A DNA stretch of 64,000 bases from Candidatus Poribacteria bacterium. Lineage in GTDB: Bacteria > Poribacteria > WGA-4E > PCPOR2b. Shown here piece by piece: positions 26,371 to 49,669 of the stretch (its first letter is position 1; each line of letters starts with the position of its first letter). The notes beneath the pieces were generated by a model. It ran no database searches and was not told the origin of the DNA. It was given only the letters and a program-made list of their open reading frames with translations. A program made the translations under genes and the position numbers. Where the stretch lies: the NCBI GenBank assembly GCA_965218095.1, contig OZ244587.1:4320001-4384000 (forward strand), in the 5' to 3' direction.

Positions 26371-26420
26371 CGGGAAATTATACTGCGGACGGTCACAAAT
26401 GACGCTTTCGTCGCCTGAAT

Positions 26421-26451
26421 CCCCGATGGATCGGGATTTCGCTTCACTCAA
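26421..26451 (+). mobile_element. 31-bp micro-element, copy A
   Basis: CCCCGATGGATCGGGATTTCGCTTCACTCAA; 28/31 identical to the reverse complement of 49541-49571; interrupts a heptamer array. Confidence 0.75.
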
Positions 26452-26630
26452 CTTGCATCTGGCATTGATACAGGATTCAAGATGCAAAATGGTGGTGGTG
26501 TAAGTTATGACCTATCGTAGTATAGTACGCGTCCGAGAATCGGATACACTCTACGATTTTTATCTGTCTCAGGGAAAATGGGTAACATTATTCTGACCAT
26601 TGCACAATCTTGGAAAAAATGAGGAACATC

Positions 26631-27185
26631 ATGACTACAAAGTTAGAAACAGCAACACTCGGCACCGGATGTTTCTGGTGCGTCGAAGCCATTTTTCAAG
26701 ATCTCCAGGGCATACATGAGGTGGTTTCCGGATATGCAGGTGGCACAGTTGAGAATCCGACCTATCAACAGGTTTGCACTGGCACGACCGGTCATGTGGA
26801 AGTCGTGCAGATGACTTTTGAGCCCCAGGTCACTTCATTTGAAGACTTGCTATATGTTTTCTGGCGAACCCATGACCCAACGACCTTGAACCGGCAAGGC
26901 GGCGACGTTGGAACTCAATACCGTTCTGTGATTTTTTATCACAGTAAGCAACAGAAAGCCATCGCAGAAAAATCCAAAAAGGAAACAGATACTTCAGGAT
27001 TATGGCCGAATCCCATCGTCACGGAGATTGAGCCTTTTCCCCATTTTTACCCGGGAGAGACATATCACCAGAATTATTATCGGCTGAATCCCTATCAGCC
27101 ATATTGCCGGTTGGTGATTGACCCTAAAGTTCGGAAATTCAAGAAAGCGTTTCGGGATAAGCTCAAAGATGAGGCGCCCAAATAA
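26631..27185 (+). CDS. msrA: Peptide-methionine (S)-S-oxide reductase
   Basis: GCFWC, SGYAGG, HDPTTLNRQGGDVGTQYRS, YHQNY. Confidence 0.96.
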   Translation: MTTKLETATLGTGCFWCVEAIFQDLQGIHEVVSGYAGGTVENPTYQQVCTGTTGHVEVVQMTFEPQVTSFEDLLYVFWRTHDPTTLNRQGGDVGTQYRSVIFYHSKQQKAIAEKSKKETDTSGLWPNPIVTEIEPFPHFYPGETYHQNYYRLNPYQPYCRLVIDPKVRKFKKAFRDKLKDEAPK

Positions 27186-27496
27186 GTGAGGAGGGCACCC
27201 TGATTGACTGACAAAACTCGGTCGGATCGATGTCATGGCTCGTTTTATCCGATTTCTCATGCGTTGTGAAAGATGGAAGCCAGGGAGCGAGGGAGCGTGG
27301 AGGCGGGCAAGGGCGAACCTCACAGGATCGCTCTCTCACATATTGGTCTGAATCCCGATCCTATCGGGGCTCGCCCCCTCTGTTGTTTGACAAGCCCCCG
27401 ATGAAGCATTGGGAGCAAAGTGAGTTATGATGCGTATCAAAAGTCACACAAATGTTAGGATGCACTTTCTTTTGACATGAGCCAACCTTTTCAAAG

Positions 27497-28603
27497 TTAA
27501 AAATGCTGCGCCGGCTCAAGCCGTGTTTCACCTATTGTCCGGTCAAATAAATGCACCTTGGTCGGGGTAAAACGAACAGCGATGTGTTCGCCGCGGTCAA
27601 TGCGAGCGTCAGGGTGCGTGCGTGCTTTGAAAGTCGTTCCGTTCAATTTCAATGTCAGAAATAGGTCGCTGCCCAACGGTTCACGTACCACAACGATGGC
27701 GTGGGCAGTAGGTGAGTCGTCAGGCAATACCTCAATATCCTCCGGGCGAATGCCAAGCTGTACTTCGGCGGAAGGGTTTGCGATTAGGCGCTGTGCGGTT
27801 TCCGGCGTAAATTCACAAGCAAATCCTGCGCCTTTCACCCGCCACTGCCCACTTCCATCGTCCTGTAACTCTCCCTCAAAGAAATTCATCGGTGGACTCC
27901 CGACGAAACCAGCAATGAACACATTGGCGGGCTGGTTGTAAATTTCTTCAGGCGTGGCCAGTTGTTGTAGCTTCCCCTTATTAAGTACCGCAATCCGATC
28001 CGACATGATGAGCGATTCAGCCTGGTCGTGGGTGATATAGACGAATGTCTTTTCTAGCTCGACATGCAGCCGCTTGAGTTCAGTGCGCATAGTCACGCGC
28101 AATTTGGCATCGAGGTTCGAGAGAGGTTCGTCAAGCAGGAACACCCGTGGATCGCAGCCGATCGCACGTGCCAGTGCCACCCGTTGTCGCTGCCCACCGC
28201 TGAGTTCACGTGGCTTCCGTTTGAGCAGGTGGTCAATCTCCACTGCCTTTGCCGCCTCCTGCACGCGACGCTCAATCTCATCGCCCGGCATGCGACGCAT
28301 CCGCAAGCCAAAGGCGATGTTATCGTAAACCCGCATGTGTGGGTATAACGCGTAGGTTTGAAAGACCATCGCTATATCGCGTTGCTCCGGTGCCACGTCA
28401 GTTACATTGTCGGTGTCGAAAAACACCTGTCCGTTTGTCGGTGCTTCGAGCCCCGCAATGATGTTCAGCATCGTGGTTTTGCCACAGCCTGACGGCCCCA
28501 GCAAAGTCAGAAACTCGCGGTCTGCAATTTCCAGTGTCAGGCCGTCCACCGCAACGATGTCCCCGAAATGTTTTGTGAGGTGTTCAAGAACAACTTTTGC
28601 CAC
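27497..28603 (-). CDS. Sugar ABC transporter ATP-binding protein (MalK/UgpC-like), orphan
   Basis: GPSGCGKT, LSGGQRQR, LLDEPLSNLD, FIAGFVGSPPMN. Confidence 0.93.
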   Translation of the reverse strand: MAKVVLEHLTKHFGDIVAVDGLTLEIADREFLTLLGPSGCGKTTMLNIIAGLEAPTNGQVFFDTDNVTDVAPEQRDIAMVFQTYALYPHMRVYDNIAFGLRMRRMPGDEIERRVQEAAKAVEIDHLLKRKPRELSGGQRQRVALARAIGCDPRVFLLDEPLSNLDAKLRVTMRTELKRLHVELEKTFVYITHDQAESLIMSDRIAVLNKGKLQQLATPEEIYNQPANVFIAGFVGSPPMNFFEGELQDDGSGQWRVKGAGFACEFTPETAQRLIANPSAEVQLGIRPEDIEVLPDDSPTAHAIVVVREPLGSDLFLTLKLNGTTFKARTHPDARIDRGEHIAVRFTPTKVHLFDRTIGETRLEPAQHF

Positions 28604-29040
28604 GAAATTTATCCTCTCCCTTGAGAAATCTTAGTCCCTGGTACACTGTGAAATGTGTTCTGACCTATTCCCGCTTCTGGTAGGATCCGGATATGGGAAC
28701 GGGGAAAGGCAATGGATCCACCCTCACCCCCAACCCTCTCCCGTCGTCAAGGGTTCAGGGGCGGACAAGAGGAGAGGGAATGAATGCTCGCTTTCCTGCT
28801 CGTTCCGAAGCTCCCCGATAGATCGGGGCAGGTCCGCCTCGCGGACTCTTGGAACGAAGCTGTGCTCGTCCGATTGCTTTGAATCCTCGATGCTTCATCG
28901 GGATCTGATCGGACTTCGCTCCAACCTGTTTCGGAACGTCATTCAGGAAGCTCTACTTCCCCACTGCGAAGTGGAGCTTCGCCAACGCCGGTTCCCAATT
29001 TACCAAAGTCAAACTATCAGCCATTTATAAAAATTAGGAT

Positions 29041-30329
29041 TCACTGCTTAGCAGGCAGAACCCATGACTCCTCCTGATACCGATTAATGGCGTCTGCATC
29101 ACCCAGGATCGACAGGAAATACGACTGTAGTAAGGCGCCTCCCAGGCCATACCCGTAATGCGTCTGCCATTGAATGGGGACTTCTGCAAGATGAAGATGA
29201 AAGTACCAGTTAAAGGTGCTGATACCATTGGCGCCGTCGTTGTACAAATCCATCGCAAGCTGGCAAATCTCGTCCTTGTAGCGTTGCAATTTTGCTGTAT
29301 CATTGACTTCGATGGGCCCCTTGTACGGGTCCATCTCCCCCAGCTAGGCAGCGGGAACAGGGTCGGATAGATAACGACTGCCTTATCCCTCGCTAATGCG
29401 GCAAACTCGGACGTCTTTGGCGGTCCAGGCCATCTGGGCCAGAACAAGGAGGGACAAACATAATCCACCCATTCTGCTTCAATCTAGGTCGTCACATCCA
29501 ACCCGAGATCTCTACAAGAGATGTCGGTTCTCACGTTTCCGCCCGGATACTCGGTCCCTGGTGCATCCGCCAGAGATGGGCCAACTCGCACTTCCAGAAG
29601 CAATTTCTTTTGCCCCTTTACCCGCGCTGTTTCATCCAACATTTGGTAGGTCTCCCTGACCATCTTCGTTAAGATTAGGTAGTTCTCATGAGGGCTCGAG
29701 ATCATGTGAGTCCAACGATGGAAGTCAAATTCAATTCCATCAATGTCGTACCGCTCGGCGACCTCGGTAAAGATCTTCAGCCGATGCTCGTAGACCTCTG
29801 GAATGGCGGGGTCTAGCGCGCCGGTGTTAGGAATCAACCATTCCGGATGTGCACGCCCAAAATCAGATAGCTTCCAGGTGTGATTGTACCAGCCCTCCGG
29901 ATTCATGCGATAACTGTCCACAATTGGTACGTTGCGTTCGCGGCAGGCTTCGATCGTCAGGGTGAAAGGATCTGTTCCCGATTCGCGCAATTTAATCATG
30001 AAATTGCGTTGACGGATTGCCCTATCATCTTCTACATCAGGTGTGCCGTGGACAAGCGCCGTCGTTTCGACGATGTGCTTGTCAAACGTGTTCTCCACTT
30101 CGGTGGGATAAAGAACCGCTTCGGGCAAGCCCGCGTTCTGGGCGAAAACGCCCGGCTTTGCGTCCAGGATGGCGGTAACCGTTCGCCGGTAATCTTCGGT
30201 GGTACTATTGCTGCCATCCATCCCACAAAGGATGTTATTACTGTCGTTATTAAAAATTGTGCCGAACTTCTTGTTATCCACGAGGACATCTCCCGTTTGA
30301 TGCCATATTGAAAGCGAGTTCCGATCCAC
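29041..30329 (-). pseudogene. Glycoside hydrolase-like TIM-barrel (GHL10/DUF187-like) gene, frameshifted
   Basis: IFNND, SYRMN, RYDIDGIEFDF and GANGISTFNW lie in three successive frames. Confidence 0.7.
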
Positions 30330-30386
30330 TGCAACGAGTTGTTATACCCACTCGATTTTGAAATGACATTATCGGGCAGTTCTATG

Positions 30387-30640
30387 TCATTCTGTGCCGC
30401 TGCCGTTGGGAGCTTCAGAACAGGCTCCCTGTCCAAGCAGTTCCTTCCGTACCTTGGCAACGCAGAGGTCTCTCAGGGGTATCCCCTCCTTAACTGCCAC
30501 GGCGGCTACTACCCACGCCGCTTGCCCTACGGCCGCGGTCATCCCTTGATAGCGCAGCACAGAATAGTCCGGCTGGCCGGTTACCAAAATGCCGTCCAAT
30601 CCCTTGGGTATCAGGCTCCTGTAGGGAAGTTGCCATCCTC
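30387..30640 (-). pseudogene. C-terminal fragment of an FAD-dependent oxidoreductase
   Basis: LPYRSLIPKGLDGILVTG..GQAA..AAVAVKEG..L..QG. Confidence 0.6.
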
Positions 30641-30754
30641 CGGGTGCCTTCCGAGCTTTTCATCCTTTGACGTGCCTCAACCGAATCATCATTGCTTGAG
30701 TTTCGTGAAGCTTTCCACAGCATAGTGTAATTTGGATTTCTATGTGCAAATCGC

Positions 30755-32720
30755 CTACACCAGCCTCCAACGGATGAGAACGAAGCGAGTTTTGCCAATC
30801 ATGAGTTTTTTTTCTAGGGGACCTGTGTACGAGCCGACGAAGATCAGCATCTCCTCCCCGTTAAGGGTGATAGTGAAAGCGTAGCTAGCAGCACTGCCGT
30901 GACAGAGATAGTAGACTTCGTCTTCCCAGGTCTGTCCACCGTCGAGGCTTACCATGGCTCGGCCGCTGGCCAACTCCCTTGGATAGCGGTGGTCGTGGAC
31001 CACCACCACTCGGTCTTCGGAGAGGCCCACCGCCGAGCCAAAACACTGGCCGAAAACAGTGGTCAACTGCCTCAGATTTCTCCACGTCAGACCATCATCC
31101 GCCGAGTCGGCGAGGAAAACATGCTTGTAGGGAAACAGGCTCCTGAAGGTGGCGGTGCCTGTGCGCTCAAAGAGGTCTGGAGGGTTCCCAGGCAGCCTCG
31201 GTCGCTGATAACGGATGACCACCAGCAATTTGCTGGAGGGTAAGGCTGCGATGTTGGTCTCAACGGAGCACCAATCACCCAAGATAGAACGGTATGGGAA
31301 GGTGCGTCCACCATCCTTAGAACGGGAAGCGTACAGGGTGTTCTTACCCGAGATTACGGTGCTCCAATCTTCGCTGATCCGTGCCTCGCTGCTCTGGATA
31401 GGTAGCAGCAACGTGCCGTCTTCAAGTCGAGTCATGCTCCAACTATCGGCTTTCTTGAATGATGTGATGTCAATCTTGCCGATCTGCTCCCAAGTCTTGC
31501 CGTCGTTGTCAGAGTCCCAACTAGGTTCTGTTGACATTTGAGTATAAGGTTGTGGCATAATAGAAGAATGACGCCAATAACCTTACCTGATGAACAATGG
31601 AATAAGATATACCGATTTCTTCTTAGCTGTCCCACCATCTATGTTGGCGACGAAGCTGCTACACGCCGCTTTATCGAAGCGGTTCTCTGGGCGACCCGTA
31701 GTGGTGCTCAATGGAGACTTCTGCCAGACACCTATGGTAAATCGAACACCCTCTATAAGCGGTTTGCTCGGTGGTGCGACAAAGGGGGCTTCACACAGAT
31801 CCACCACCACTTCGCCGCCGACCCCGATATCGAGTCGCTTATTGTGGACAGTACAATCATTCGAGCGCACCCGTGTGCGGCGGGTGCCGAAAAAAAAGGG
31901 TGGCACTGAAAACCAAGCGTTAGGTCGCTCTCGCAGGGGATTCAGTACAAAAATTCACATCACCGTTGACGGCCTGGGTAATCCACTAAGAATACATCTG
32001 ACACCCGGTCAGAGACATGACATAACTGAGGCAGAAGGGTTGATAATCGGATATAAAAGCGAGTATGTGATTGGAGACATGGAGACAAGGGATATGACTC
32101 CGACAATTTTATCGCCGTTATTGAGGCGAATGGAGCGATTGCGGTGATACCGCCAAAAAGTCATCGTGTTGACCAAAGAACGTATGACAAACACTTATAC
32201 AAAGAGAGACATCGGGTTGAATGTTTCATTAACAAGATAAAATGGTATCGCCGCATCTTCTCTCGGTTCGAGAAGTTAGCTATCCGTTATTTTGGATTTC
32301 TCAGCTTTGTCGCCACTCTTATATGGCTCCCTTGAAATGTCAACAGAACCTAGTTAGGGAGGGTTGACTTATGTTAATCAGCCTGCCTTCTTTGTTGACC
32401 CCCCAATATAGCCAGCGCCTCGAGTGCGCTTGCGAAGGGTGCCGTTGAAGGTGTTCCCAAGTTTTCCCTCCGTCCGTCGACTTTGAAATAATTGTGAGTT
32501 GGGAGGCGTAGATGGTTCCGTTCGGAGCCAGAACCAAGCGCACGTCCTGAACGTATCCCTGTGGATCTAGTGGCATCCTGGTCTTCTCCACCGGTGCTTT
32601 CTTCAGCTTGCCGTTGCGGGCGTGCAAAATGTAGCCGCCAGCCTGCATCGCCTCGAGCTGCTCGGCACCGACCTCCACGCCGCCGAGGCGATCCGTCCGC
32701 AAGTGCGTCGATTCTTCCAT
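30755..32720 (-). pseudogene. BNR/Asp-box sialidase-like protein interrupted by IS5
   Basis: Removing the IS and one TA restores the frame (ISQPSLTSWDSDNDGKTW); multiple SxDxGxTW boxes. Confidence 0.88.
31524..32350 (+). mobile_element. IS5-family element, copy 2 (defective)
   Basis: Same TIRs and TA duplication; 827 bp; an 8-bp duplication TGGAGACA breaks ORF B, and 1 nt is missing before the A8 tract. Confidence 0.95.
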
Positions 32721-33283
32721 GCTTCCATCCTCCCTCGCTTACGCAGAATTCTTACGTCGAACTCACGTTAGTGTAGCATCCCGGCTGGTCCGCCGCCCAC
32801 GCAGAACAGCTTGGCCTTGCCGCCCAGCAGCGACTGATTTGAGAGTTCACCATGATTTTTGAATCGCTATCCCCACCGATAGCGTATCTAAAGCAAAAGC
32901 CTCGCCTATCGTCCAACAGGAAGGGTCATTATCCGCCGAAAATTGTTTGGTGCGCCTTGACCCATAAGCGCACATGACAGTCAGCCCGGTCGGTAGGGGC
33001 ATTTGTAGAAGTCTCTTTTGCCTGTCGGTGTCCTAGAAGCGATGGGCATAGGTCCTGCTGAAAAAGAGTTCGACTTTAGCGTGGTGATGAAGTCACCGCG
33101 CTAAAAAACCGCGCCCAATAAATTGGGCTCAAGCCCTCAAAAGTCCGACTCATCGGATGCCGTTTGGTAGCCTGCTGATTCATTAGCAGGCGGGGAGGTA
33201 CGCTAAATCCCTTAAATTAACGGCCATGGGGGGATATGGAATTTGCGCTAAATAAACAGGAAAACCAATGTGACTTTGACCGG

Positions 33284-33886
33284 TCATTTAGTTTCATTTA
33301 GCGCCTTCAGGTACTCACGCATCCACTGCCAGCCATCGCGAGCACCCCGCGCAGTGATAATGAGACCGTCCACCACCACCGGTGCCTCTACATACGTGGC
33401 CCCACAGACTTCGGCGTCGAACCGGCATTTCGCCACGGTGGCGATCTGCTTCCCCTTGATCACCCCGGCCATCGCCAGCACCTCAATCCCGTGGCAGACG
33501 GAGCCAACCGGTCGCCCTGCGTCCACCAGCCACTGCACAGTGTAAATTAGGTGCTCGTCGTAGCGAATGTATTCGGGCGCCCGGCCGCCACTGACCAACA
33601 GCCCCGCGTATTCCTCGGGGTTGATATCCCGGAAAGCGATGTCGGCATCCAGGTGATAGCCGGGACTTTCGCGAGTGATATCCCACCCCTCTGGCTGCTC
33701 GTGCAAGACAAGCGGGTAAGCCCGGACCTCGGGCGCCGCCACAACTACCTGATAACCAGCTTCTTGCAGACGCATCCACGGGTACAGCGTATCGGTCGCT
33801 TCGGCTGCGTCGCCAATGACCAAGAGAATTTTTCCTGTCGCCAAATCCTCTCCATTGGTTCGTCTCAGATGTCCTTCTATTGCCAT
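33284..33886 (-). CDS. DJ-1/PfpI family protein
   Basis: SGGRAPEY, SVCHG. Confidence 0.92.
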   Translation of the reverse strand: MAIEGHLRRTNGEDLATGKILLVIGDAAEATDTLYPWMRLQEAGYQVVVAAPEVRAYPLVLHEQPEGWDITRESPGYHLDADIAFRDINPEEYAGLLVSGGRAPEYIRYDEHLIYTVQWLVDAGRPVGSVCHGIEVLAMAGVIKGKQIATVAKCRFDAEVCGATYVEAPVVVDGLIITARGARDGWQWMREYLKALNETK

Positions 33887-33998
33887 TTTCTTTACCTCCA
33901 CTATTCTTAGTTATCACGGAGAGCCGGAAAGTCTTCTGAATATCTCTGGCTTTCCGGCTTTTTGACCTGCTGACTTTCCGTATCGATCAGTCCACGGC

Positions 33999-34657
33999 TC
34001 ATCTCACAACTGTGGTTTCTATGATTCGCACTGAATATTCCCCCGGATAGCGCGCGTTAGGCATATAAGGGTCTTCTATATCCAAGCTACCCGCCCGGAT
34101 TGTTATCTTGTTTGTCCTTTCTACCCTGAAGAAAGCGGTATTCTCGTAGACTCCCATCCAGATACTGCCGTAGAATCCTCCACTTCTGTGTGAGAACCAG
34201 TCTACTACCCCGCCGTGGCTATCCAGGTATTCTTGCTCTCTTGACTCTCCTTTGAACTGCCCCATGAGTACCCTTCTGCCGTAGTCGAAATGTATCCCAT
34301 TTAAGTTGTCGATTTGCTGTCTTTTCGGCGCGCCGGGTGCAAGGTCCTCGAGTTTTTCTTCGTCTTCCCCGTATTCGCAGACGACATACCCTTTGGGGCA
34401 ACATCCACTACTCACCACTGTAACCGCTACGATGGGTTGCTGCTCCTCGATAGTAATGAATCCCTTTTCAGGGATGACTCCATTCCTGTTTGAGTATCAT
34501 ACTCCGCAAAGTTTCCGAGGGTGACATTGACATAATTGAACGGCGACACGTACTCGTGGTGTTCGGTTGAAAAAGCTTCGGGCGTCTTTGGGGGCCCCAG
34601 CCTCTTCCTGTCTTCATCTGTGAATTGACTGAAGATCTTCACTGGCTCTCTTCTCAT
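33999..34657 (-). pseudogene. Hypothetical protein, frameshifted near 34485
   Basis: GGAGG RBS before ATG 34657; two ORFs join by a single frame change. Confidence 0.55.
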
Positions 34658-35249
34658 TTTAACAATACCTCCTTGGGGTTGCTCCAAATAATGGAGTGAT
34701 GCAGGGGAGGGTTTCTACGCTTGAAGGCGGGTTCAGAGCCCCGTCATACAACTGAACTTATAGCGAGTAAAACGCGCGCTTCTCCTGTCATCCTCAACGA
34801 AGGGACGGATCTCTTGCACCTTAACGAGGAGATTCTTCGCTGCGCTCTATTAGACTTCCAAGAAACTACCCGCAATGCACTCTATAACCTTTGGTGCTAG
34901 TTTTGGAATGTGGATTTAATAACGACGGGCATAAAGCCCTGGACCACGGAAAATCGTGTCGTAGCCTAGTACACGTCGGCAGAAGTATCTGAGCCTCCCA
35001 GCCTCGATTCTCCCCCTTGCAGAGCCCCACTAGGCGGGATTAAGAAACCTGCTCCGAGCCATCGGAGGGGAATTAGAGGGGGTCAAGAACTTACGCCACC
35101 CTGCTCTAGTCCCTTGTGGGTGTTGAGTTTGGTACGAACCTAGCACCATTGGTTTTATAGTAGTTACGCAAGTTGTCTACCGAAATGTTAATCCCAATTC
35201 GCATGAGGGAATTGTTAAAGCGGCGTTTTTAGCCATCTTGTGAAGATAC

Positions 35250-36952: not shown

Positions 36953-37257
36953 TTTACCCCTTTCACTTTTTTAAGTGATTATGAATAAATGTCTTCCATA
37001 ATTCCCCTCACTCTAACCTTCTCCCACCAGGGGAGAGGGAACTATTTCTCCCCTTGCCCTTGACGGGAGAGGGGCCGGGGGTGAGGGCGAAAACGTAAAA
37101 GGAAATAATTCAAACTTACTTGACATTTTACCGCAACACTTCCGTTGAAATTTCTCGGACGAAACGAACCTTCTCGAAAAAAGCATAAGCGGTTGTCATT
37201 TCGCGGAGTCGCGAGCCAATTGAACATCTTTTCACTCACTAGCCGGTAATCGGGTTT

Positions 37258-38517: not shown

Positions 38518-38577
38518 AGCTATCCTCGATTTCCCACTACGCTGCACATAACCTGCGCTAATGACGTATAATCTTCA

Positions 38578-38705
38578 TAGGACTTACGCAATTGAATCGG
38601 TATCCCCCAACCTTCTGTGCATCTTACATCTTGTATCGGATTCAGGATTCAAGATGCGGGATGCGGTCAAATCGCAGGTTCTGCACATCGGCTGCGTAAG
38701 TCCTA
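38578..38705. mobile_element. MITE with YAGGACTTACGCA terminal inverted repeats (128 bp)
   Basis: Perfect 13-bp TIR; 5-bp TSD CTTCA overlaps the P450 stop codon. Confidence 0.92.
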
Positions 38706-38707
38706 CT

Positions 38708-39940: not shown

Positions 39941-39953
39941 AGCTATCCTCCAA

Positions 39954-40730: not shown

Positions 40731-40859
40731 CTTTGCACCTCCATTATTTTTTGGATTCTATCGATTCAATTCTGCTCCATTGGCCTGGAAAAGTACCGGA
40801 AGGTGTAATGGTCAACAGGATGATAGACACTTTTGCTCACCAAATCTAAGCGACAAATC

Positions 40860-40884
40860 GTAGGGTGGGCAGTGCCCACCCTAC
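40860..40884. repeat. GTAG-type REP-like perfect palindrome
   Basis: GTAGGGTGGGCAGTGCCCACCCTAC. Confidence 0.75.
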
Positions 40885-40945
40885 AAGGAATGATGTCTAC
40901 CATCTTCCTGACTAATACATTCTTTTGGAATTTTCAAACAGCCTC

Positions 40946-41701
40946 TTAGCGCGCTCTCTTTATCGCTCCCCAAAACGTGGCGAGCTTCCCCGAGGCACCC
41001 ACCGCGGCGACGCCTATATCTTTCTGAAACGCATCCCTTATCTCTTTTTCTGTCCGTGCGACCTTCGAAATACGAAGATTATCCAGCGCACCGTTGAAGA
41101 ACCCTCTCGTTCCGTCTTCTGCACCGATGAACAGATCACTGGCGCCGCCAAGGTCCCCATTCCTACCCTTCTCCACGGCGAGCTTTGCATCCACATAAAG
41201 TTTCATCTTCTTCCCGTCATAGACCGCGGCATAGTGATGCCACTCGCCAACAGGCACAGTCTTTTCTGTGTTCATATCGGTTTGACCCTTGACGGTATCA
41301 ATCATCATGTAAACGGCAAAGCTACCCCCCGCCCAGAACATCAGCTCAAATCCTCCACCCGCTCTCTTATCGAAGATCAAATCATTATCACCCCCGTGAT
41401 CCCGTTTCGCCCATGCCTCAAAAGTGATATTTTTTCTGATATTCAACGTATCTGATTTTTTAACCAGGATGAAGGATTTCCCATCGAATTCATAACCATT
41501 ACCCCACTTCCCCCTGACGATCTTGATTTTGCCCTGAATCTTTCCATCATTGCCGTTCCCGGAAAGATCTTTGACCGTCTTACCGTTGATTTCTTCACAC
41601 GGAAACAGTAATACTGTATCGGCATCTTCGGAGAACCCAACAACGGGGGCAACCGTTAAAAACAATACGGCTGCCAGAAAAACAGTGAATTTTTTCATCA
41701 C
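40946..41701 (-). CDS. Secreted LamG/concanavalin A-like jellyroll protein
   Basis: Signal peptide, DLSGNGNDG, TFEAW, WHHYAAVYDG..LYVD, FNGALDNLRI, C-terminal GKLATFWGAIK. Confidence 0.92.
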   Translation of the reverse strand: MMKKFTVFLAAVLFLTVAPVVGFSEDADTVLLFPCEEINGKTVKDLSGNGNDGKIQGKIKIVRGKWGNGYEFDGKSFILVKKSDTLNIRKNITFEAWAKRDHGGDNDLIFDKRAGGGFELMFWAGGSFAVYMMIDTVKGQTDMNTEKTVPVGEWHHYAAVYDGKKMKLYVDAKLAVEKGRNGDLGGASDLFIGAEDGTRGFFNGALDNLRISKVARTEKEIRDAFQKDIGVAAVGASGKLATFWGAIKRAR

Positions 41702-41851
41702 GAAAACCTCCTTTTATTTTGACAATGTGAACTTGACTTTGTCACATGAAAATGAATGGTACTGAAGTCAGACCTTATTCTGGGCTGTACGAAGCGAAGT
41801 CTATAGGCTCGTCAGCGGTACCGTAAATAATGAACCACAGAAACGGTCCTA

Positions 41852-41973
41852 GGGCGTGTTGACGAATTCCTCTTGCTCCCTTTGGATTGGCAAATCCAAG
41901 GATCGGGAAATGCCTTTCCCAATCGAGCAAAAGCGCGTCACGAGTGCGTTTCCCCGAGTTCGTCAACACGCCC
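41852..41973. mobile_element. IS5-type MITE (122 bp)
   Basis: 15-bp TIR GGGCGTGTTGACGAA with TA duplication; shares the TGTTGAC core with the IS5 TIR. Confidence 0.85.
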
Positions 41974-42183
41974 TAAACCGGCATTGGAGGGAATTACCCA
42001 TTACGTGTTTTGCCCTGGGTCTATCCAGATATCTGGGGGAATGAGCCCTTGAAGGTACATTGGCTTTCTCTCCAAGTCGCATGAATTCTACACAATTTAT
42101 TCTACACGAAATCGGCACCATTGTCAAGCGCCATCTCGTAAAGGGTGTGGCAAGAACTTGTCAGTCTATCAAAGTCGCCGGGG

Positions 42184-42495
42184 CTATTGGTCCGTCTTCC
42201 TGAGCGCAATATAGCCTCCTTGGGGAACGCCCAGGTCAACCAGCAAAGCTCCGTCCGTGGCGCTCAAGTTCGTCTCCGAAAGCAGCGTTGGATCATAGTT
42301 ATGTACCATCGCCGCAAACTCACCCTCAACATCCGAGAGGATCGTGTACAGGGCGTCCTCGTTGGTGCAATTGAACAGGTAGATCTCCGCCGCTTCCTGG
42401 TTGAGCGGCACTTTCAGCGCCGGGAAGTTGGCATAGTGCACAAAGTCCTTCCGGCCATGCTCAACCTTGATCGTCGAGAACAGGACATCGTGCTG
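42184..42495 (-). pseudogene. C-terminal gene fragment starting at a REP hairpin
   Basis: Open frame QHDVLFSTIKVEHG..GGYIALRKTDQ* with no convincing start; it begins at the loop of a half REP. Confidence 0.55.
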
Positions 42496-42682
42496 TTAGG
42501 GCCGAAATGTCTATAAATAGCGGTCTTCCGTTACATTGTCTAGCTCCGTAGGAGCGAAATGTAACCTCATTCACGCCAATCCATGGGCGTCCATTACACA
42601 TAATCACATGTCGCTCCGATGGAGCTATGGATATGTGATTAATGCCGAATCGTGCTATAAACATGTCGCGCCTGGCGGCGCT
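42495..42682. repeat. REP cluster (2+2 inverted hairpins, no transposase)
   Basis: GCTCCGTAGGAGC-type hairpins with a 3' GNNATGT(TTATAG) tail, arranged as around tnpA at 47597-48230. Confidence 0.85.
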
Positions 42683-43024
42683 AAAGCTACGAGGTTGTTG
42701 GTCAACAGCAGGTTCTATTCGCAGAAACATACCCTTATCAGCTCTGTGTCTCCCCCAAGATTGGGGGGAGATTCAGAGGGGGGCTGGAGAGCACCAAGTC
42801 ACCAGGGAAAAACTTCTGCCGCGATGTACTACGTTGACTGTTCACTTGTTCTGCCCCAACACCTAATACTGGATTAGGATTTAAATTTCTCATTCCGACC
42901 TCCCCCCAACCCCTCCTTCGCAAGGCGGTTCTTCTCCTTAAGAAGGGGAAGTTAGAGGGGTTTATTTGATGGGAAATCAAAAACCTAAATCGGTATAAGT
43001 CCGTCGTAATGCTTTGGCGGGCAG

Positions 43025-45553
43025 CTATCGCATGTCAACGCGCTGCAAACTCGCGTCGTCAAAGAGCGCGAAGTCTCCCGCTGACTGATCAAACACACTT
43101 AAAAGCATGACTGCCCGCTCCACGCCATCGGGGACGCGGAAAAAGACCACAAGCCGCTGCCAATCGAGCGAAGCGAAGAGCTCAATCTCATCGGGGTCCT
43201 TGGTTTCGCCGGTAGGCAGTTGATCGACCTTCGGCGAGATCTTGTTGAGCCAGCTCCCTTGCGCATCCTGCCACTGGACCCGAAGCTGGACTTTCGCGCC
43301 CCCTATTACACTCGCCTTCACAAATACCGATGCCATATAAAGTTCGCCCGATTTCACATCTACCGACTGCTGGAAGGAGGCCCCTCCCTCTACGCCTGTC
43401 ATCTTCACAGCCGCTGCGCCTGTACGGGGTCCTTTGTTAGTCCAGGTCAGCGTCGCTTTTGTGCCAGGGCGAATCCAATGGCCCCAACCGGGTGGGTCCT
43501 TGCTGCTGTCCCATTCCGGTCCCTCCGGCGGCGTACCTTTTTCGACGACGTCCTCTAAGCTCGGATTCTGAAGCCGCTCCACCGCTGTCTCCGAATGATG
43601 GCGCATCCTGCGCAGCACGCTCACTGCGACGACCACATCGTCATCAGGGAATGCCCTTTCTAACTCGTTCAGCACCTGCTCCACGCTTTGGCGCCCTCCA
43701 CTGCGCTCACCCCACTCTGCTATCTCCAATAGCACCCGTGATAATCCTCCGCCTGGCTCCCACCGCGCCCGTCTCGTGAACGAAATCACCGGCTTGTGCA
43801 GTGGATTCGTCATGATGACTTCGCGGTAGTAGCAGTCTAGTTCCCGTCGTGCCTCCGCAAACTGGCGCACCAGGGGCGGCGCCTCCTCAAACTGTGACTG
43901 ATTTTGCACGCGAAAGCTGGTCAGTTGCTTATCGACATAGTGGAGCGTTGCGTAAAGTTTGGTGTAGCGAAAACCCTCGGCGTAAAGCTTCACTCTCCGT
44001 TTAATCAACTCGTCCTCGGCGGTCCCCATTGCCTCGTTCAGGTAGCGTCGCGCTTGCACACAGACATCAGGAGGGAACAGTTCCAACTGCATCGGGTCGA
44101 AGAAGTAGCGGAACCACTCTCCCTTTCCTTTCTGTCCCATCCACTGTCCCTCACACAACTCGAAGTAGGCGCGCATAGGCGCAGCGGCTTTCCCGAAGAA
44201 GTTTGTATAGAAGTCGAGGAGCAAAGCCTCCAGGTCCCCATCCGTATCCCACAAGAGTTGGCTTGCGGCCCAAGCCTTTGGCCCATCCAGGCTCCAGTTC
44301 GAGTAAATCTCGGCGTAGAACCCTCGCACGCCTGCGCCCTTGCAAAACTTCAGGCTCTCAGCGGAAAGGCGTGTGAAGATGCGCGGGATGACATAGCCAG
44401 AGCCGTAGTAGTAGTCGTAGATGCCGATGATCGGCACCGCCTGCGTCCAGCGGCGAATGAGCTCTTGGTCAAGCCGCTTAAAGTCGGGGTCGCGCCATTG
44501 AGCGCGGTCGTTGGTCAGGTAGGGGATGATGTGAGGGTGGACGGGGAATGACGGGGTATTCTCACACCAAGAGTAAGCAAGACAGCCGATGAATTTGTCG
44601 GGATGCGTCTTGACCAGTTCCTCGGCGGCGCGATTGAGAAACGTGAAGACCAGGTCGGAGTAGTCGGGGCGTCCCCTGAACGCCCTCCCGTGCGCCACCC
44701 ACGATTGGCAGTCGTCACACTCGCAATAGCCGCGACTGTCGTTGACCCCCAGAGAAAAACTGACCGCCTTCGGATTCCCCTCAAAGTGGCGAGCCGCAAC
44801 CTGCCCCGCATACTTCGCTGCTTCGAGGTTGCTCATACATGGCTGCCAACCGTGCTCATCTGTTCCCTGTGGCTTGTAGCGCGCTCCGTCACGTAGTGGA
44901 AACCATTCGGGATGCGCCTCGAACAGGTCAGGCGTGAAGACGTGCAGCAGGTTGTGATGGAAGTTGAACCGCTCCCACATCAGGTTGCGTTTCTCCCAAA
45001 CACCGTCATCAAAGGGAGCCGCGGAACTCCACTGCCGCGAGAGAAAGTCTGGCTGCTCAACATCATTGATTTGCGGCGTTGTAAATTCCACCCGCCTGGG
45101 CACATGCTCACCAAGTTCCGTCGGAATATACCATCGCACGCCGCCATACTTCTGAAGGAAGCGATAGACCGCGAACTCCGTGCCGTGTAACTCTCGTCCG
45201 CAAAGCACTAAGCGGTTATCCACCACCTTGATGACGAACCCGTCTATGTCTATCGCTTCCAGATTCAGCCCCAAACCTTTCACGAACTTCGTCCGCCCGA
45301 TGTGTACCTCACCCCCCCCATCTCCCTCAGAACCTTCCGCCACAATTGACAGCTTGATGCCCGTCATCTTCCCAAGGTAGGTCTGAAGCTCGTGTGCAGC
45401 ACGACTTTCTTCCGTCTCGGACGGATAAGGGAGGACGATGCGGGCAACGGGCTCCCCATCTTTGACCAGGGGCAGCACATCTGCTGCGGGTGTCCCTTGC
45501 GTTGGCACCAATACGCTGACGACGGTCAGCGGCAACATGATAAAGCTTTGCAT
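43025..45553 (-). CDS. Secreted DUF4838-type protein with C-terminal CBM4/9-like domain
   Basis: ELQTYLGKMTG, GVRWY.P, HPEWF, CECDDC, LAY, LLWD..FFGKAA..MR.YF. Likely start 45553 (track start 45754). Confidence 0.8.
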   Translation of the reverse strand: MQSFIMLPLTVVSVLVPTQGTPAADVLPLVKDGEPVARIVLPYPSETEESRAAHELQTYLGKMTGIKLSIVAEGSEGDGGGEVHIGRTKFVKGLGLNLEAIDIDGFVIKVVDNRLVLCGRELHGTEFAVYRFLQKYGGVRWYIPTELGEHVPRRVEFTTPQINDVEQPDFLSRQWSSAAPFDDGVWEKRNLMWERFNFHHNLLHVFTPDLFEAHPEWFPLRDGARYKPQGTDEHGWQPCMSNLEAAKYAGQVAARHFEGNPKAVSFSLGVNDSRGYCECDDCQSWVAHGRAFRGRPDYSDLVFTFLNRAAEELVKTHPDKFIGCLAYSWCENTPSFPVHPHIIPYLTNDRAQWRDPDFKRLDQELIRRWTQAVPIIGIYDYYYGSGYVIPRIFTRLSAESLKFCKGAGVRGFYAEIYSNWSLDGPKAWAASQLLWDTDGDLEALLLDFYTNFFGKAAAPMRAYFELCEGQWMGQKGKGEWFRYFFDPMQLELFPPDVCVQARRYLNEAMGTAEDELIKRRVKLYAEGFRYTKLYATLHYVDKQLTSFRVQNQSQFEEAPPLVRQFAEARRELDCYYREVIMTNPLHKPVISFTRRARWEPGGGLSRVLLEIAEWGERSGGRQSVEQVLNELERAFPDDDVVVAVSVLRRMRHHSETAVERLQNPSLEDVVEKGTPPEGPEWDSSKDPPGWGHWIRPGTKATLTWTNKGPRTGAAAVKMTGVEGGASFQQSVDVKSGELYMASVFVKASVIGGAKVQLRVQWQDAQGSWLNKISPKVDQLPTGETKDPDEIELFASLDWQRLVVFFRVPDGVERAVMLLSVFDQSAGDFALFDDASLQRVDMR

Positions 45554-45583
45554 AACCAAGATCCTTAATCGCTTTTGAAGTAA

Positions 45584-45685
45584 TTTGACTTTGTTACATT
45601 CGCCCCCCGGCCCCCAATTCTGAGGGCCGGGGGGCAAGCCAGCAGTGGATCTGTCGATGATCTCTTTTAATCTAACAAAGTCAAG
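45584..45685. mobile_element. MITE-like element carrying a GC-rich palindrome
   Basis: TTGACTTTGTTA / TAACAAAGTCAA inverted ends; possible GTAA duplication. Confidence 0.55.
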
Positions 45686-45757
45686 GTAACTTGACAATGT
45701 TATACCGTTTCTGAATAAAAATGCAGCATTGGAGTGGAAAGAAGGTGCCTGCAAAGG

Positions 45758-46042
45758 CTATGCTCCTCGCTTGTCCCCAAAGTCCACTCGATTGGCTTTC
45801 AGTAACATGTTGATATACTTCCTAACCTCTCCGGTGTTCACTCCGACCTTGTAGACGCTAATGCCCGTTTTCTCGTAGGCATCCACAAGCACATCAAATT
45901 TCGTTTCGAGCGCATCAAGAATCTCATCTTGAGTTGACAGCACCACTGTTTCTGCGGACGTGGATTGGGCGGGGGCGGACAGCAACGTTGCCGACGAGCA
46001 ATAGATATACTCAACCGTTTCATCGCTTGGATTCATCAGCAA
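45758..46042 (-). CDS. Hypothetical protein or gene fragment
   Basis: AGGAG RBS-like site and protein-like composition. Confidence 0.4.
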   Translation of the reverse strand: MLMNPSDETVEYIYCSSATLLSAPAQSTSAETVVLSTQDEILDALETKFDVLVDAYEKTGISVYKVGVNTGEVRKYINMLLKANRVDFGDKRGA

Positions 46043-46084
46043 ATGGAGCTCCTCGGGTTCTAACTATAGTGCACAACCGGGCGG

Positions 46085-46312
46085 TTAAGGTTGGTTTGGA
46101 TTCGCTGTAGTTTCTGAATGCTCCCGTGTCCACTGAGCCTGGGGCTGGTAGCCACAACAGCCAAGAACGGGCAGACGCGGATACTTGGCGAAATTGGGAT
46201 TGGATGTTGATAGAAGGCAGAGATAAAAGCGGCTTTGGTTGGCATTTTGGATGACTTTGGCGTGTTCACAAGTCTGACACAACCCGATTTCTACAGGACT
46301 TTTAGCTTTCAT
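46085..46312 (-). CDS. Small Cys-rich (putative metal-binding) hypothetical protein
   Basis: GLCQTCEH..FYLC..KYPRLPVLGCCGY; the track's longer N-terminus is IS5 sequence. Confidence 0.65.
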   Translation of the reverse strand: MKAKSPVEIGLCQTCEHAKVIQNANQSRFYLCLLSTSNPNFAKYPRLPVLGCCGYQPQAQWTREHSETTANPNQP

Positions 46313-46320
46313 AGCACCTA

Positions 46321-47140
46321 GGTTCTGTTGACATTTGAGTATAAGGTTGTGGCATAATAGAAGAATGACGCCAATAACCTTACCTGATGAACAATGGAAT
46401 AAGATATACCGGTTTCTTCTTAGCTGTCCCACCATCTATGTTGGCGACGAAGCTGCTCCACGCCGCTTCGTCGAAGCCGTCCTGTGGGTGACTCGTAGCG
46501 GCGCTCAATGGAGACTTCTACCAGACACCTATGGCAAATGGAACACCCGCTACAAGCGGTTTGCTCGATGGTGCGACAAAGGTATCTTCACACAGATGCC
46601 CCCCCACTTTGCCTCTGACCCCGATATCGAGTCGCTTATTGTGGACAGTACAATCTGCCGCGCTCACCCGTCTGCGGCGGGCGCCTTAAAAAAAAGGGTG
46701 GCACTGAAAACCAAGCATTAGGTTGGTCTCGGGGCGGTTTCAGTACAAAAATTCACATCACAGTTGACGGACTAGGCAATCCGCTAAGAATTCATCTGAC
46801 ACCCGGTCAGAGACATGACATAACTGAGGCGGAAGGGTTGATAATCGGATATAACAGTGAATATGTGATTGGAGACAAGGGGTACGATTCGGACGCTTTT
46901 ATCGCCGTTATTGAGGCGAATGGAGCGATTGCGGTGATACCGCCCAAAAGTCATCGTGTTGACCAAAGAACGTATGACAAACACTTATACAAAGAGAGAC
47001 ATCGGGTTGAATGTTTCATCAACAAGATAAAATGGTATCGTCGTATCTTCTCTCGGTTCGAGAAGTTAGCTGTCCGTTATTTTGGATTTCTCAGCTTTGT
47101 CGCCACTCTTATATGGCTCCCTTGAAATGTCAACAGAACC
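46321..47140 (+). mobile_element. IS5-family element, copy 3
   Basis: Same TIRs, TA duplication, 820 bp; ORF A and ORF B overlap at TTAAAAAAAAGGG. Confidence 0.95.
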
Positions 47141-47596
47141 TAATCTCTTTTAAAGCAACTAAAATCAGAGGTGTTCCGAAGCAGGAGCTTCGGAACGAGC
47201 AAATGTTAAGTTTCAGGCGAGAGCCAAGTAGTACGAGATAATTATTTTGATAAATCTGGGAGCAGGGTGTTGGGGGATTGGGCTGTTGGCAGGCTGAGTC
47301 AGTGGCTGGTGACAGTCAAAGCAAATCGCTGCCAACTTGCTTTGACTGCTACTGCGACTTTGCCAGCGGAGGTCTCCCATTACCCCATCACCGTTGTTGA
47401 GAGAGTTCACCGTTTTTCGTGACATCTGACAATAATCAAATTAAATTTGTCCAAGCACTTATATGCTTGCATCCCGATCCATCAGGGTCTCCCGACTTAT
47501 GATTCGATTGGTGCACGCCGTGCGCCTACTTTGCTCCCGCTAGGCAGAGGGGCGGCCCTCCGCATCAGATCTGAATTCCACTGGGAGAGAATTTTT

Positions 47597-48230
47597 GCTC
47601 CGTTAGGAGCATGATGTTTATAGCATACGAGAAACAATCAACCCCATAGCTCCGTAGGAGCGGAATGACTATGGCAAATACAGCTTATGAATCCTCTACC
47701 CAATCAAAGACATATCTCGCATCGTATTCCACATCAAAGCGTTCTAGGTTCGAGATATTCTTCGCGAAAGGGTTTGATTGAATGATGCTGTTCCTGATTG
47801 CGAATATAATTAACAACCATATTGAGTTGCGAATGAGAATAGGAAAACGCTCCAAATCCTTCCTGCCAATTGAATCTTCCCCGAATCCACCGCTTTTCAT
47901 TGATGAACCTTGAAGAATTCGCCTTGATGTCTCTGACCACATCGGATAATGCAATAGTCGGCGTCATTCCGACGAGGATGTGGGCGTGATCGGGCATGCT
48001 GTTTATGGCAATCAGTTTCTGTTTATTGTTTCGGAGGGTACCCGTGATATATTTGTGGAGCTCCTCCTTATGTGCCTTTGGAATAAGGCTTTGTCTGCCT
48101 TGCACCGCGAAAACAATGTGGATATAGATTTGGATGTAGGTATTGGCCATTATTGCCTCCATTTCGCTCCTAACGGAACTATGTGATATTAGGGTTTGGG
48201 TGTCTATAAACATTACGCTCCTATGGAGCT
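47597..48230. mobile_element. REP-flanked Y1 transposase locus (REPtron-like)
   Basis: Two hairpin REPs on each side of tnpA, in inverted orientation. Confidence 0.85.
47685..48150 (-). pseudogene. tnpA: IS200/IS605-type HUH Y1 transposase (RAYT-like), frameshift near 47749
   Basis: HIVF, DHAH (HUH), WQEGFGAFS, NYIRNQEQHH; C-terminal LERFDVEYDARY is in another frame. Confidence 0.9.
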
Positions 48231-48268
48231 TCAACCCTCGTGTGAGTAGCTTGCCTGTACAATATACT

Positions 48269-48359
48269 GGCTCATGTTAAGACTTCGTGCAAAGGCAAAA
48301 TTCACACCAATGATTTCACGGCTTCTCTAACACTTTTGCACTTTCTTTTGACATGAGCC
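48269..48359. mobile_element. MITE with GGCTCATGT ends (ISL3-like), 91 bp
   Basis: GGCTCATGT..ACATGAGCC with 8-bp TSD AATATACT; a matching right end occurs at about 27461-27483. Confidence 0.85.
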
Positions 48360-48473
48360 AATATACTTTATCATAGGAACGGTTGAATCGCTTATCTAAA
48401 ATTCAGGATTGACTCATGTTTTCTTGGTTTGATGGGTATGGGGCTGCCCCACATGCACCAAGCTAACATGCCT

Positions 48474-48581
48474 CACCCCGTAGGGGTGGTATGTTTATAG
48501 AACCCACGCCAACCGTTAGCCCTAGCTCCGTAGGAGCGGCATGTTTTGCGAACTGGCCCACATGTCGCCCCGATGGGGCTA
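48474..48581. repeat. REP cluster (2+1 hairpins)
   Basis: ACCCCGTAGGGGT, GCTCCGTAGGAGC and inverted GCCCCGATGGGGC. Confidence 0.85.
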
Positions 48582-48770
48582 ATGCTTCTCCTCGTAGACA
48601 GCTTCAAATGCCGCCATCTGCTCCGGCGGTACCCAGAAGGACAAGCGTGTCAACGTTGGCACGGTGCGTGGCTTCTCCTCCGCAGCACTGTGGGCGGGAA
48701 CGGCGTCCTGAGCGGTCACGGTAAAGTGTCCCACCATGGTCAATAAGAGAATCAGGCTGACGTATTTCAT
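48579..48770 (-). pseudogene. N-terminal fragment of a secreted protein truncated at a REP
   Basis: AAGG RBS, signal peptide, RLSFWVPPEQMAAFEAVY; the TAG stop is at the REP edge. Confidence 0.6.
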
Positions 48771-48893
48771 CGGATGCCTTCCTTCGTCTGTGGATTGGAG
48801 AATAATGGACGGACTGCTGCCGCGAAGATCAGTATTACGGATTTTCTGAGTCTCTGTTATGGTCCCAAACGTGCTGGCGGAATGTTATACCAA

Positions 48894-49025
48894 CAGACTT
48901 ACGCAATTGAATCGGCTGATTATCCCCCAACCTCCTGTGCCTCTTGTATCTTGTATCGGATTCAGGATTCAAGATGCAGGATGCGGTCAAATCGCAGGTT
49001 CTGCACATCGGCTGCGTAAGTCCTG
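48894..49025. mobile_element. MITE, second copy of the 38578-38705 element
   Basis: Near-identical interior; CAG-ACTTACGCA..TGCGTAAGTCCTG; 5-bp TSD ACCAA. Confidence 0.9.
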
Positions 49026-49188
49026 ACCAAATTCGACAGGAGATCTATGAAAAACTTGGGATCATGTCAAAGGTAAGTGCATCCACCGATTATAATGGTT
49101 GCCACGACGCGCCCCCCATACAGATCAAGTTAAGCGAAAAATTGTGAATTTGCTTAAGTCGTTGAATGAGGCTAGAGGAGGCGAGAAA

Positions 49189-49607
49189 TTATTTATCTCT
49201 GTTCGGTTTGAGTAATCATTGAGAAGAATTATTCTCCATTGTGACGAGTTTGCCGATGACGTTGTTGTATAGTTGGAAAAGTTCACCACCAACTTCCTTC
49301 GTAATGTATTCACACTCAACAGCACTTTCTATCCAAGACTGTGTTTCTCTCGCCTCACTTTCAGCCATGTTCAGTTTATTGATAAAGTCAGCGCGGTAGA
49401 GCGTTCTCCTCCACGCTTCAACAATGTGAGCACAGGCAAATCGTGACGCTCGGCGGATCCCGAAGATCGGGACTGTACATTTCCTCTTTTGGAAAACGAC
49501 GACTCAGCTTAAAAATCCGCTGCCTCTCTTCCCTCGCGAGTTGAGCGAAGCGAAATACCGATCTATCGGGGTTTATACGCATCAAGCTCTCAATAGTTTT
49601 CTGCCAT
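49189..49607 (-). pseudogene. Four-helix-bundle (23S rRNA IVS-type) protein gene disrupted by micro-elements and stops
   Basis: GGAGG RBS; MAENY*ELDAYK[31-bp insert]LAREERQRIFKLSRRFPKEEMYS[13 bp]IRRASRFACAHIVEAWRR..EARETQSW. Confidence 0.85.
49541..49571 (-). mobile_element. 31-bp micro-element, copy B
   Basis: CCCCGATAGATCGGTATTTCGCTTCGCTCAA between codons AAA and CTC; removing it restores the frame. Confidence 0.8.
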
Positions 49608-49669
49608 TCTCAATCCTCCCTTCTACTCACTTCCTCCCCCCACGCCCCCATGCTACCTCTGAGCAGAGG

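Follow-up and report, generated by a model that had tools for sequence, protein, structure and literature searches.

The closest described systems are very small dispersed repeats. Repetitive extragenic palindromic sequences (REPs) are hairpin repeats of 20–40 nt that are at times nested, clustered or translated; their palindromic unit carries a GTAG or CGTC tag at one end (PMC3733652), and they are proposed to be moved as single strands by a Y1 transposase acting in trans (PMC3733652, PMC3116915). Small dispersed repeats (SDRs) of Nostocaceae measure 21–27 nt and are reported as not found beyond Nostocaceae (PMC5861425); their mobility was concluded from nesting and from insertions seen against related genomes, with the mechanism left unsettled (PMC5861425, PMC2884548). 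Rickettsia palindromic elements (RPEs) of about 150 bp are described for Rickettsia and lie in frame in unrelated housekeeping genes (PMC10969869, PMC3733652). The element analysed here, termed E, is 30–33 nt long and was followed up from a 64,000-nt stretch of DNA (the window) of a Candidatus Poribacteria bacterium (assembly GCA_965218095.1, contig OZ244587.1), which corresponds to positions 4320001–4384000 of one 6.35-Mb contig (genome G000, 50% GC).

E was defined as a pyrimidine (Y), a hairpin CCCG-loop-CGGG and the tail ATYTCGCTNCGCT, followed by either CAA or AGAGA. The original prediction had described a 31-bp mobile element without terminal inverted repeats, clear target duplication or its own transposase. 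Its consensus matches the window at 26421–26451 (+) and 49541–49571 (−) and nowhere else at ≤3 mismatches; the two 31-mers are of equal length and identical at 28/31 positions, as had been reported, and no match was obtained in 100 dinucleotide-preserving shuffles of the window. This 31-mer is one subtype within the family. In G000, 21 loci lie within 7 substitutions of either 31-mer, and 40 copies of E were found by a strict search (perfect stem, tail with ≤2 mismatches) and 67 by a loose search, the latter set including a few false positives. A relaxed pattern with seven tail positions left free gave 48 matches in G000 versus 0 in the reversed genome. When any hairpin plus the tail was allowed, the search proved unspecific (126 matches versus 74 in the reversed genome) and was dropped in favour of patterns anchored on CCCG/CGGG, with 0 control matches. 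CAA-type copies in G000 are 30 nt long in 15 and 31 nt long in 6 of 24 cases, and AGAGA-type copies are 32 nt long in 13 of 17 cases and 33 nt long in the others. Some members ride in larger repeats; both 70-nt flanks are unique in the genome in 18 of the 67 loose members, and the short unit itself is therefore the repeat. E has many copies, constant boundaries and both paralogous and orthologous sites without it, and none of the three conditions under which the original prediction would have been refuted applies. E is very probably a mobile insertion element, or was one in the past, and the description as mobile DNA without inverted ends, consistent duplication or own transposase is supported by the comparison of filled and empty sites, the constant ends and the copy number.

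Filled and empty states were compared in nine clean pairs: copies A and B of the window, a third window copy, the genes of the CCA-adding enzyme and of GlnE, the orthologous locus L269, G000 positions 210678 and 2495160, and a TTAA-flanked MITE (a miniature transposable element with inverted repeats). Copy B (49541–49571, − strand; 31 nt, CAA type) lies within a decayed PF05635 four-helix-bundle gene (49216–49607, − strand). In the homologues of genomes G017, G011, G016 and G014, precisely these 31 nt are missing and the site reads Y-K-(L/F)-A-R-E, which bears out the predicted restoration of YKLARE upon removal of copy B. The junction reads TATA|AACTTGCTAGG in the homologues versus TATAAA, the 31 nt and CTCGCGAGG in G000, so that a two-base AA ambiguity is left. 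The G017 homologue matches PF05635 (23S rRNA intervening sequence/four-helix-bundle family) with an E value of 3.9e-28. The host gene in G000 is a pseudogene and is broken even without copy B, by a nearby TGG>TGA stop and a further +1 frameshift. At 49457–49475 of the same pseudogene, the cttaaccgatcaaatcc of the relatives is remodelled to the hairpin tcccgaagatcggga plus one extra base, which is no simple insertion.

Copy A (26421–26451, + strand; 31 nt, CAA type, main hairpin CCCGAT/ATCGGG) sits in the middle of a MITE-like repeat of about 147 nt (26378–26524, + strand) that has inverted ends and a central heptamer hairpin, that was aligned from 11 genomic copies and that has matches in G000 and G001. 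Five other copies of this repeat lack the 31-mer and bear other small hairpin modules. The splitting of the heptamer run cctgaat|cttgcat by copy A was confirmed, and its empty site was recovered only approximately, as the other copies differ by one heptamer. The third copy in the window (51246–51277, − strand; 32 nt, AGAGA type; genome position 4371248) had gone unnoticed; it is nested in another repeat, the paralogue of which at 2811464 is empty (tttgag|cctgaac). A further window match at 1434–1448 was rejected as a copy, the hairpin being absent. Position 210678 is filled, and the paralogous sites at 4514744 and 6309341 are empty (gggg|cttgcccc). E is present at 2495160 and 4448964 and absent at 4420006 (tgg|attgac), and three further copies of this site hold a different module of 24 nt. 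The TTAA-flanked MITE is about 115 nt long; 12 of its 21 aligned copies are empty (GAATCG|CCTCAC) and 9 carry E at one fixed point, two of these with a different main hairpin. The ends of this MITE are TTAAGTAATTTTCA...TGAAAATTACTTAA, with copies at G000 293534, 1767962 and other positions. The pair 1360004/1377249 was left out of the nine on account of an unclean junction (target GG^TTA-like, with an extra A).

At the orthologous locus L269 of genus g4, five genomes are empty, three contain one 27-nt module, and two contain the module together with E. This module shares the hairpin of E and has another tail, and E is placed between the module and the same CTTG. At a second locus of genus g4 (L272), E lies just past the stop codon in all 11 aligned genomes, in two of which hairpin modules are nested within E. 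Other modules of 24–27 nt, with a CCCGAT..ATCGGG hairpin and the tails ATGCGAGC or ATTCAAAGCRA, occupy sites of this kind as well, ahead of (C/A)TTG; they were located at G000 334231, 3954143 and 5779353, and at L269 in G103, G095 and G098. This suggests a superfamily of hairpin modules that share CCCGAT..ATCGGG.

The nine pairs have sharp ends, inverted ends in none (0/9) and no consistent target duplication. On the strand opposite to the original consensus, the tetranucleotide immediately 5′ of E is CAAG in six of the nine (A, B, CCA, GlnE, L269 and 210678), and CAGG (third window copy), GAGG (TTAA-flanked MITE) and CAAT (2495160) occur in one pair each. Genome-wide, CAA-type copies are followed by CTTG or CCTG in 14 of 24 cases and AGAGA-type copies by CTTG, CCTC or CCTG in 14 of 17, the background being about 0.4% per tetramer. 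The shared target AA(A/T)^CT given in the original prediction is literally correct for its two copies; what is conserved, however, is not the AA but the 3′ flank ^CTTG, which reads CAAG in the opposite direction. The base past CAA in member m58 is A in the filled and the empty site alike, and the C that usually follows CAA is therefore assigned to the target. E thus has in common with elements of the IS200/IS605 type that it lacks inverted ends and duplication and is inserted 3′ of a fixed short target.

Insertions within protein genes give the polarity of the event. Stop-to-stop frames of ≥300 codons hold 22 of the 67 loose copies (random expectation 37.5 ± 4), and many genic copies are 30 nt long, in frame and mostly antisense, reading V-E-R-S-E-I-P-R-x-G. 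All eight antisense frame-1 copies are preceded by a Gln codon plus G. Nine host genes with Pfam matches carry E (an N6 DNA methylase, GlnE, a RecQ-like helicase, an Lpd-like oxidoreductase, a CCA/poly(A) polymerase, two NtrC-type regulators, a BadF/BcrA-type ATPase and a copper ATPase), and eight of these copies are 30 nt long. Exactly ten residues (30 nt) are absent from four of five orthologues of the CCA enzyme and likewise from four of five orthologues of GlnE, the fifth GlnE having another insert at this place. The fifth CCA orthologue (G023, locus L334) contains the decapeptide KPSKIPRDAV where G000 has ERSEIPRNGI, despite the E pattern being found in 0/10 genomes of family f3; the decapeptide represents either a degenerate copy of old date or an insertion made in parallel. 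In the Lpd-like gene, a variable loop holds the E-like stretch and a clean gap was not seen among the orthologues, so exact gaps of ten residues were obtained for two of the three genes compared. Because the polarity is clear within a conserved reading frame, the genic copies are insertions. The 30-nt copies are open in five of six reading frames; they persist in genes as loops of ten residues, and 31-nt copies, such as copy B, break genes. A heptosyltransferase (PF01075) frame at G000 6211194–6212369 contains a 31-nt copy, and the domain match begins at profile position 59 just past it; this gene may have been frameshifted by E.

Two stems were predicted in E. Read on the strand opposite to the original consensus, the element is 5′-TTGA-GC(GNA)GC-GAAAT-CCCG(loop)CGGG-R; it comprises a 2-bp mini-hairpin, a spacer and a main hairpin of 5–6 bp that closes the element. 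The fair test of the main stem was made with the 130 matches listed from the genome collection, for which the search pattern held the 3′ arm only: a perfect 5′ partner is present in 77 of these, versus 4% after shuffling, and at least five pairs are present in 66, with the fifth pair being C:G in 39, A:T in 26 and G:C in one. An alignment of 26 copies, preselected for a paired fifth position, had 91% paired cells and 18 double-sided changes, a level reached in 0/500 shuffles; MAFFT right-justified the variable loop of E. The mini-hairpin in the tail (GC-TNC-GC on the consensus strand, GC-GNA-GC on the opposite one) mostly has G:C as outer pair, with A:T in seven copies, C:G in one and a single one-sided break, and the middle base of its loop is the sole freely variable position of the tail. 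As judged from these alignments, covariation supports both predicted stems. Mini-hairpins of DNA in which G:C pairs close a GNA loop are unusually stable, and for this reason the opposite strand, as DNA, was taken as the presumptive active form.

Within the phylum, the core pattern of E was found in 25 of 151 genomes and the reversed pattern in none. By family, the pattern is present in 23/25 genomes of f1, 1/4 of f4, 0/100 of f2, 0/10 of f3 and 0/11 of five further families. G000 contains 20 exact core copies, G001 contains 81 (87 with a shorter pattern), and genomes of genus g4 contain 1–7 each. Several CAA-type copies of G001 are identical over the 26 matched nucleotides in different flanks, which suggests recent activity of E in this genome; the AGAGA-type copies of G001 ride in a larger repeat. 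The family is not confined to local DNA but spans many phyla. A genome collection covering the phylum and other taxa gave at least 122 stretches with E, the 80 titled ones among which include Bacteroidota (including Pedobacter sp. BS3), Ignavibacteria, Kapabacteria, Zixibacteria, Desulfobacterales, Planctomycetota, Puniceicoccaceae, Neomarinimicrobiota, a metagenome-assembled genome of Clostridia, and Poribacteria; cyanobacteria are not among these 80. Five such genomes contain 16 (Pedobacter sp. BS3), 87, 49, 106 and 33 copies. One genome of Bacteroidota (G157, locus L174; e.g. C1:125161–125237) has spacerless arrays of E with a period of 29–30 nt, which arose either by serial insertion at the edge of the previous copy or by slippage. 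Metagenomes yielded at least 117 stretches with E at 32–68% GC, many of them in short tandem repeats, and CAA comes next in 106 of the 123 matches listed. In one metagenomic lineage, 16 contigs carry E at a single locus, and in three of them the CAA|CTTG junction additionally holds a related unit in inverted orientation. No match was obtained in viral contigs. A 20-nt tail that is nearly unchanged in genomes of 32–68% GC from many phyla points towards a sequence-specific reader.

E belongs among the very small mobile repeats, but it fails the tested features of REPs, SDRs, MITEs and integron attC sites. It resembles the REPs and their associated tyrosine transposases (RAYTs) in size, hairpin, dispersal, nesting and clustering, and translation in some genes. 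It differs in that the stem of its consensus (57 and 26 aligned copies) is preceded by Y and followed by ATTT, with no GTAG or CGTC tag, in its asymmetry (a hairpin plus a non-palindromic tail of 16–18 nt with its own mini-hairpin), in its defined target CAAG, and in a single tail common to many phyla; no Y1 gene flanked by E was found, nor does E co-occur with those Y1 genes that were tested. With the SDRs (SDR4–6), E shares a very small size and mobility indicated by nested copies and by insertions relative to related genomes; it is set apart by length (30–33 nt) and by hosts (Poribacteria, Bacteroidota and others). SDRs are also associated with heptamer repeats. The comparison with Nostoc-type repeats made in the original prediction is useful as an analogy but does not hold for the host, since G000 is poribacterial and its highly iterated palindrome HIP1 is unenriched (156 found versus about 97 expected). 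Like the RPEs, E is palindromic selfish DNA that occurs in frame in unrelated protein genes, is absent from orthologues and adds a peptide; unlike them, it spans phyla and its target motif is fixed, and the added peptide is only ten residues long. Read from the sequence, E differs from MITEs in lacking terminal inverted repeats and target duplication. Rfam gave 0 window matches at the gathering score and, for ten loci bearing E, only a weak tRNA match elsewhere at E≤1; an exact-string search of the searchable literature for the sequence of E gave no match.

Elements of the IS200/IS605 type have neither inverted ends nor target duplication; they insert 3′ of a fixed tetra- or pentanucleotide, carry hairpins near their ends and stack by re-use of the target. 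IS91 moves by a rolling circle, uses the target CAAG/GAAC without duplication, and needs only one end. E resembles the former in the missing inverted ends and duplication, the fixed target at its 5′ side and the stacking; it too has predicted hairpins near its ends, but two that are unlike each other, and it is several-fold smaller than any IS200/IS605 derivative known to us; no TnpA/TnpB parent with the ends of E was found. With IS91 it shares the tetranucleotide abutting one end and the lack of duplication. A Y2 (IS91) transposase was found in none of four genomes (G000, G001, G014 and G017), a search in which the control genomes were silent as well.

On this basis, E may be a non-autonomous, ultra-small element moved as a single strand by an enzyme of the HUH (histidine–hydrophobe–histidine) type acting in trans, an explanation that as a whole we place just short of an even chance; the HUH-type single-strand route, taken for itself, is put forward tentatively. 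E has been inserted precisely 3′ of CAAG (at times CAGG, GAGG or CAAT) without inverted ends or duplication, and it would be cut and rejoined as single-stranded DNA in the manner of IS200/IS605 and of REPs with their RAYTs. Repeated use of the same CAAG stacks modules side by side. This route is favoured because insertion is precise, without duplication and with a fixed tetranucleotide at one end, because re-use of the target stacks modules and hairpins rather than inverted ends define the unit, and because 30 nt are probably too short for duplex synapsis of two ends.

Several observations weigh against this explanation. No partner enzyme was found among the Y1, TnpB, Y2 and DUF559 candidates examined. 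The Y1 gene of the window has homologues in 93 of the 151 genomes of the phylum, including 63/100 in family f2, in which E is absent, 9/10 in f3 and 18/25 in f1, and none was found in G001 with its 87 copies of E. The four PF01797 genes of G000 and the five of G001 have other hairpins and no E in their flanks. Homologues of an IS200-type TnpA of G001 occur in 40/100 genomes of f2 and 7/25 of f1 and were not found in G000; both TnpB elements of G000 have ends without the E motif. An IS605-like copy beside E in G014 ends 160 nt from E, with E lying outside. The two similar hairpins of IS200/IS605 elements contrast with the two hairpins of E, which are very unlike each other in size and sequence, and the folding energies of single copies are ordinary relative to shuffles (z −1.3 to −0.4). 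The GC skew and the open reading frame (ORF)-strand skew of G000 are both flat, which leaves no replichores for scoring the orientation of E. No current polymorphism was seen at copy B in the assembled contigs of four public sequencing runs of near-identical strains from three studies (including X1, X2 and X4), which span copy B without a gap. An apparent excision of the third copy in these runs (a 32-nt joint in 4/4) was discarded on account of its short sides and its identity to the empty paralogue at 2811464. Finally, microhomology of 2–3 nt between the start of E and the target was observed in three of the four clean events of the CAA type (TT in the case of copy B and of the CCA gene, TTG at L269), which also fits template switching.

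The window contains a Y1 (IS200-like, RAYT-type) transposase gene (47737–48153, − strand; PF01797, 94 bits, the best match among the four of G000) at 1.4 kb from copy B. It was rejected as the mobiliser of E, since it has its own inverted flanking units of the GCTCCGTAGGAGC type and a distribution that does not follow E; the co-occurrence with HUH genes, named as a check in the original prediction, did not hold for the Y1 genes tested. The gene, encoding 139 residues, is part of a REPtron-like unit (47599–48546) in which it is flanked by inverted units of the GCTCCGTAGGAGC + ATGTTTATAG type, more copies of which are found at 48470–48546. A Y1-like gene at G000 3422249 is located among cas-like genes. 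A DUF559 nuclease was discarded as partner (one weak match, not near E), and a full-length parent with the ends of E was found neither in G000 or G001 nor beside E in G014. The metagenome loci with E showed ordinary genes only and no transposase in a scan of the 150 longest of 291 ORFs of ≥90 residues.

Template switching (copy choice) at hairpins in the course of DNA replication or repair, which would copy E to a microhomologous site without a dedicated enzyme, is the strongest competitor and is improbable rather than negligible. Apart from the junction microhomology, it is favoured by the frequent position of E in or beside short tandem repeats, that is, in slippage-prone DNA, and by the back-to-back arrays in G157. 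Yet microhomology is absent from all three AGAGA-type events and from GlnE, the ends are identical in every event, the tail conserved across phyla and base compositions points to a sequence-specific reader, and the preference for CAAG reaches past the few shared bases. Next in order, and distinctly less probable, is a site-specific recombinase or nuclease-ligase that acts on folded DNA and inserts E at G^TT-like sites, as the integron integrase does with attC. The target G together with TTGAGC gives GTTGAGC, which fits the attC core GTTRRRY; a G^TT target with the crossover ambiguity of cassette insertion is present in three of nine events, and serial insertion at one site is seen at L269. Against this, E has one such site only, formed with the target G, and its other end is CGGG-R in place of a second core site; six of nine targets are not G^TT, and AGAGA-type copies begin with TC.

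Copying of E through RNA with insertion by a reverse transcriptase is very improbable. Precise insertion without duplication would agree with it, reverse transcriptase genes had been suggested in the original prediction, and the PF05635 family of the copy-B host includes accessory proteins of diversity-generating retroelements; poly-A and 5′ truncation are absent, and a GNA loop between G:C pairs is a mini-hairpin of DNA rather than an RNA motif. An immobile conserved signal (terminator, protein-binding site or uptake sequence), recurrent or ancestral, is scarcely tenable: the strongly conserved tail, the retention of E past the stop codon at L272 and its presence at one locus in 16 metagenomic contigs would suit it, but the exact gaps of 30–33 nt in orthologues and paralogues, among them conserved enzymes and other repeats, the copy numbers, which run from 0 to 106 per genome in relatives and other phyla, and a weak hairpin without a T run do not, and a purely functional, non-mobile signal is largely ruled out by the genic insertions. 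Some copies might nonetheless have acquired a function through a binding protein of physiological role.

Other repeats were recorded alongside E. An 18-mer, TAGGTTCTGTTGACATTT, occurs about 300 times in G000 (both strands), contains TTGACA and is found in spacers and also in the L269 alignments; it is the most frequent 12-mer source of G000. A 37-nt repeat of the CRISPR type, GTTTCAACCTTTGCCCCGATGAAAAGGGGACTGAAAG, occurs about 110 times in G000. Tandem GAGGGAGC/GAGGAGGC units stand ahead of the four-helix-bundle genes (window 49610–49650 and homologous loci L010–L012) and the complement of these units comes after them, as though the small gene were itself in a repeat-bounded cassette.

The movement of very small mobile repeats such as REPs and SDRs has remained largely unsettled after decades, and E offers an unusually clean system: it has sharp ends, a target of four bases, two covarying stems and dozens to about 100 copies in some genomes, and a cultured carrier is available in Pedobacter sp. 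BS3 with 16 copies. With the tail conserved to this degree across phyla, phylogenetic profiling should lead to its reader enzyme. A bolder view, which we consider rather unlikely, is that E would be the smallest self-contained bacterial transposable unit yet, a two-hairpin single-strand unit of 30 nt with its own target CAAG that has been carried between phyla; its mover would be an enzyme family new to mobile DNA or a conserved host factor of replication or repair, and E would constitute an unrecognised, widespread source of ten-residue loops in housekeeping proteins. For gene annotation, 31-nt copies of E yield pseudogenes. For protein evolution, 30 nt suffice for precise, repeated insertion that has become fixed in GlnE, the CCA-adding enzyme, a RecQ-like helicase and NtrC-type regulators.

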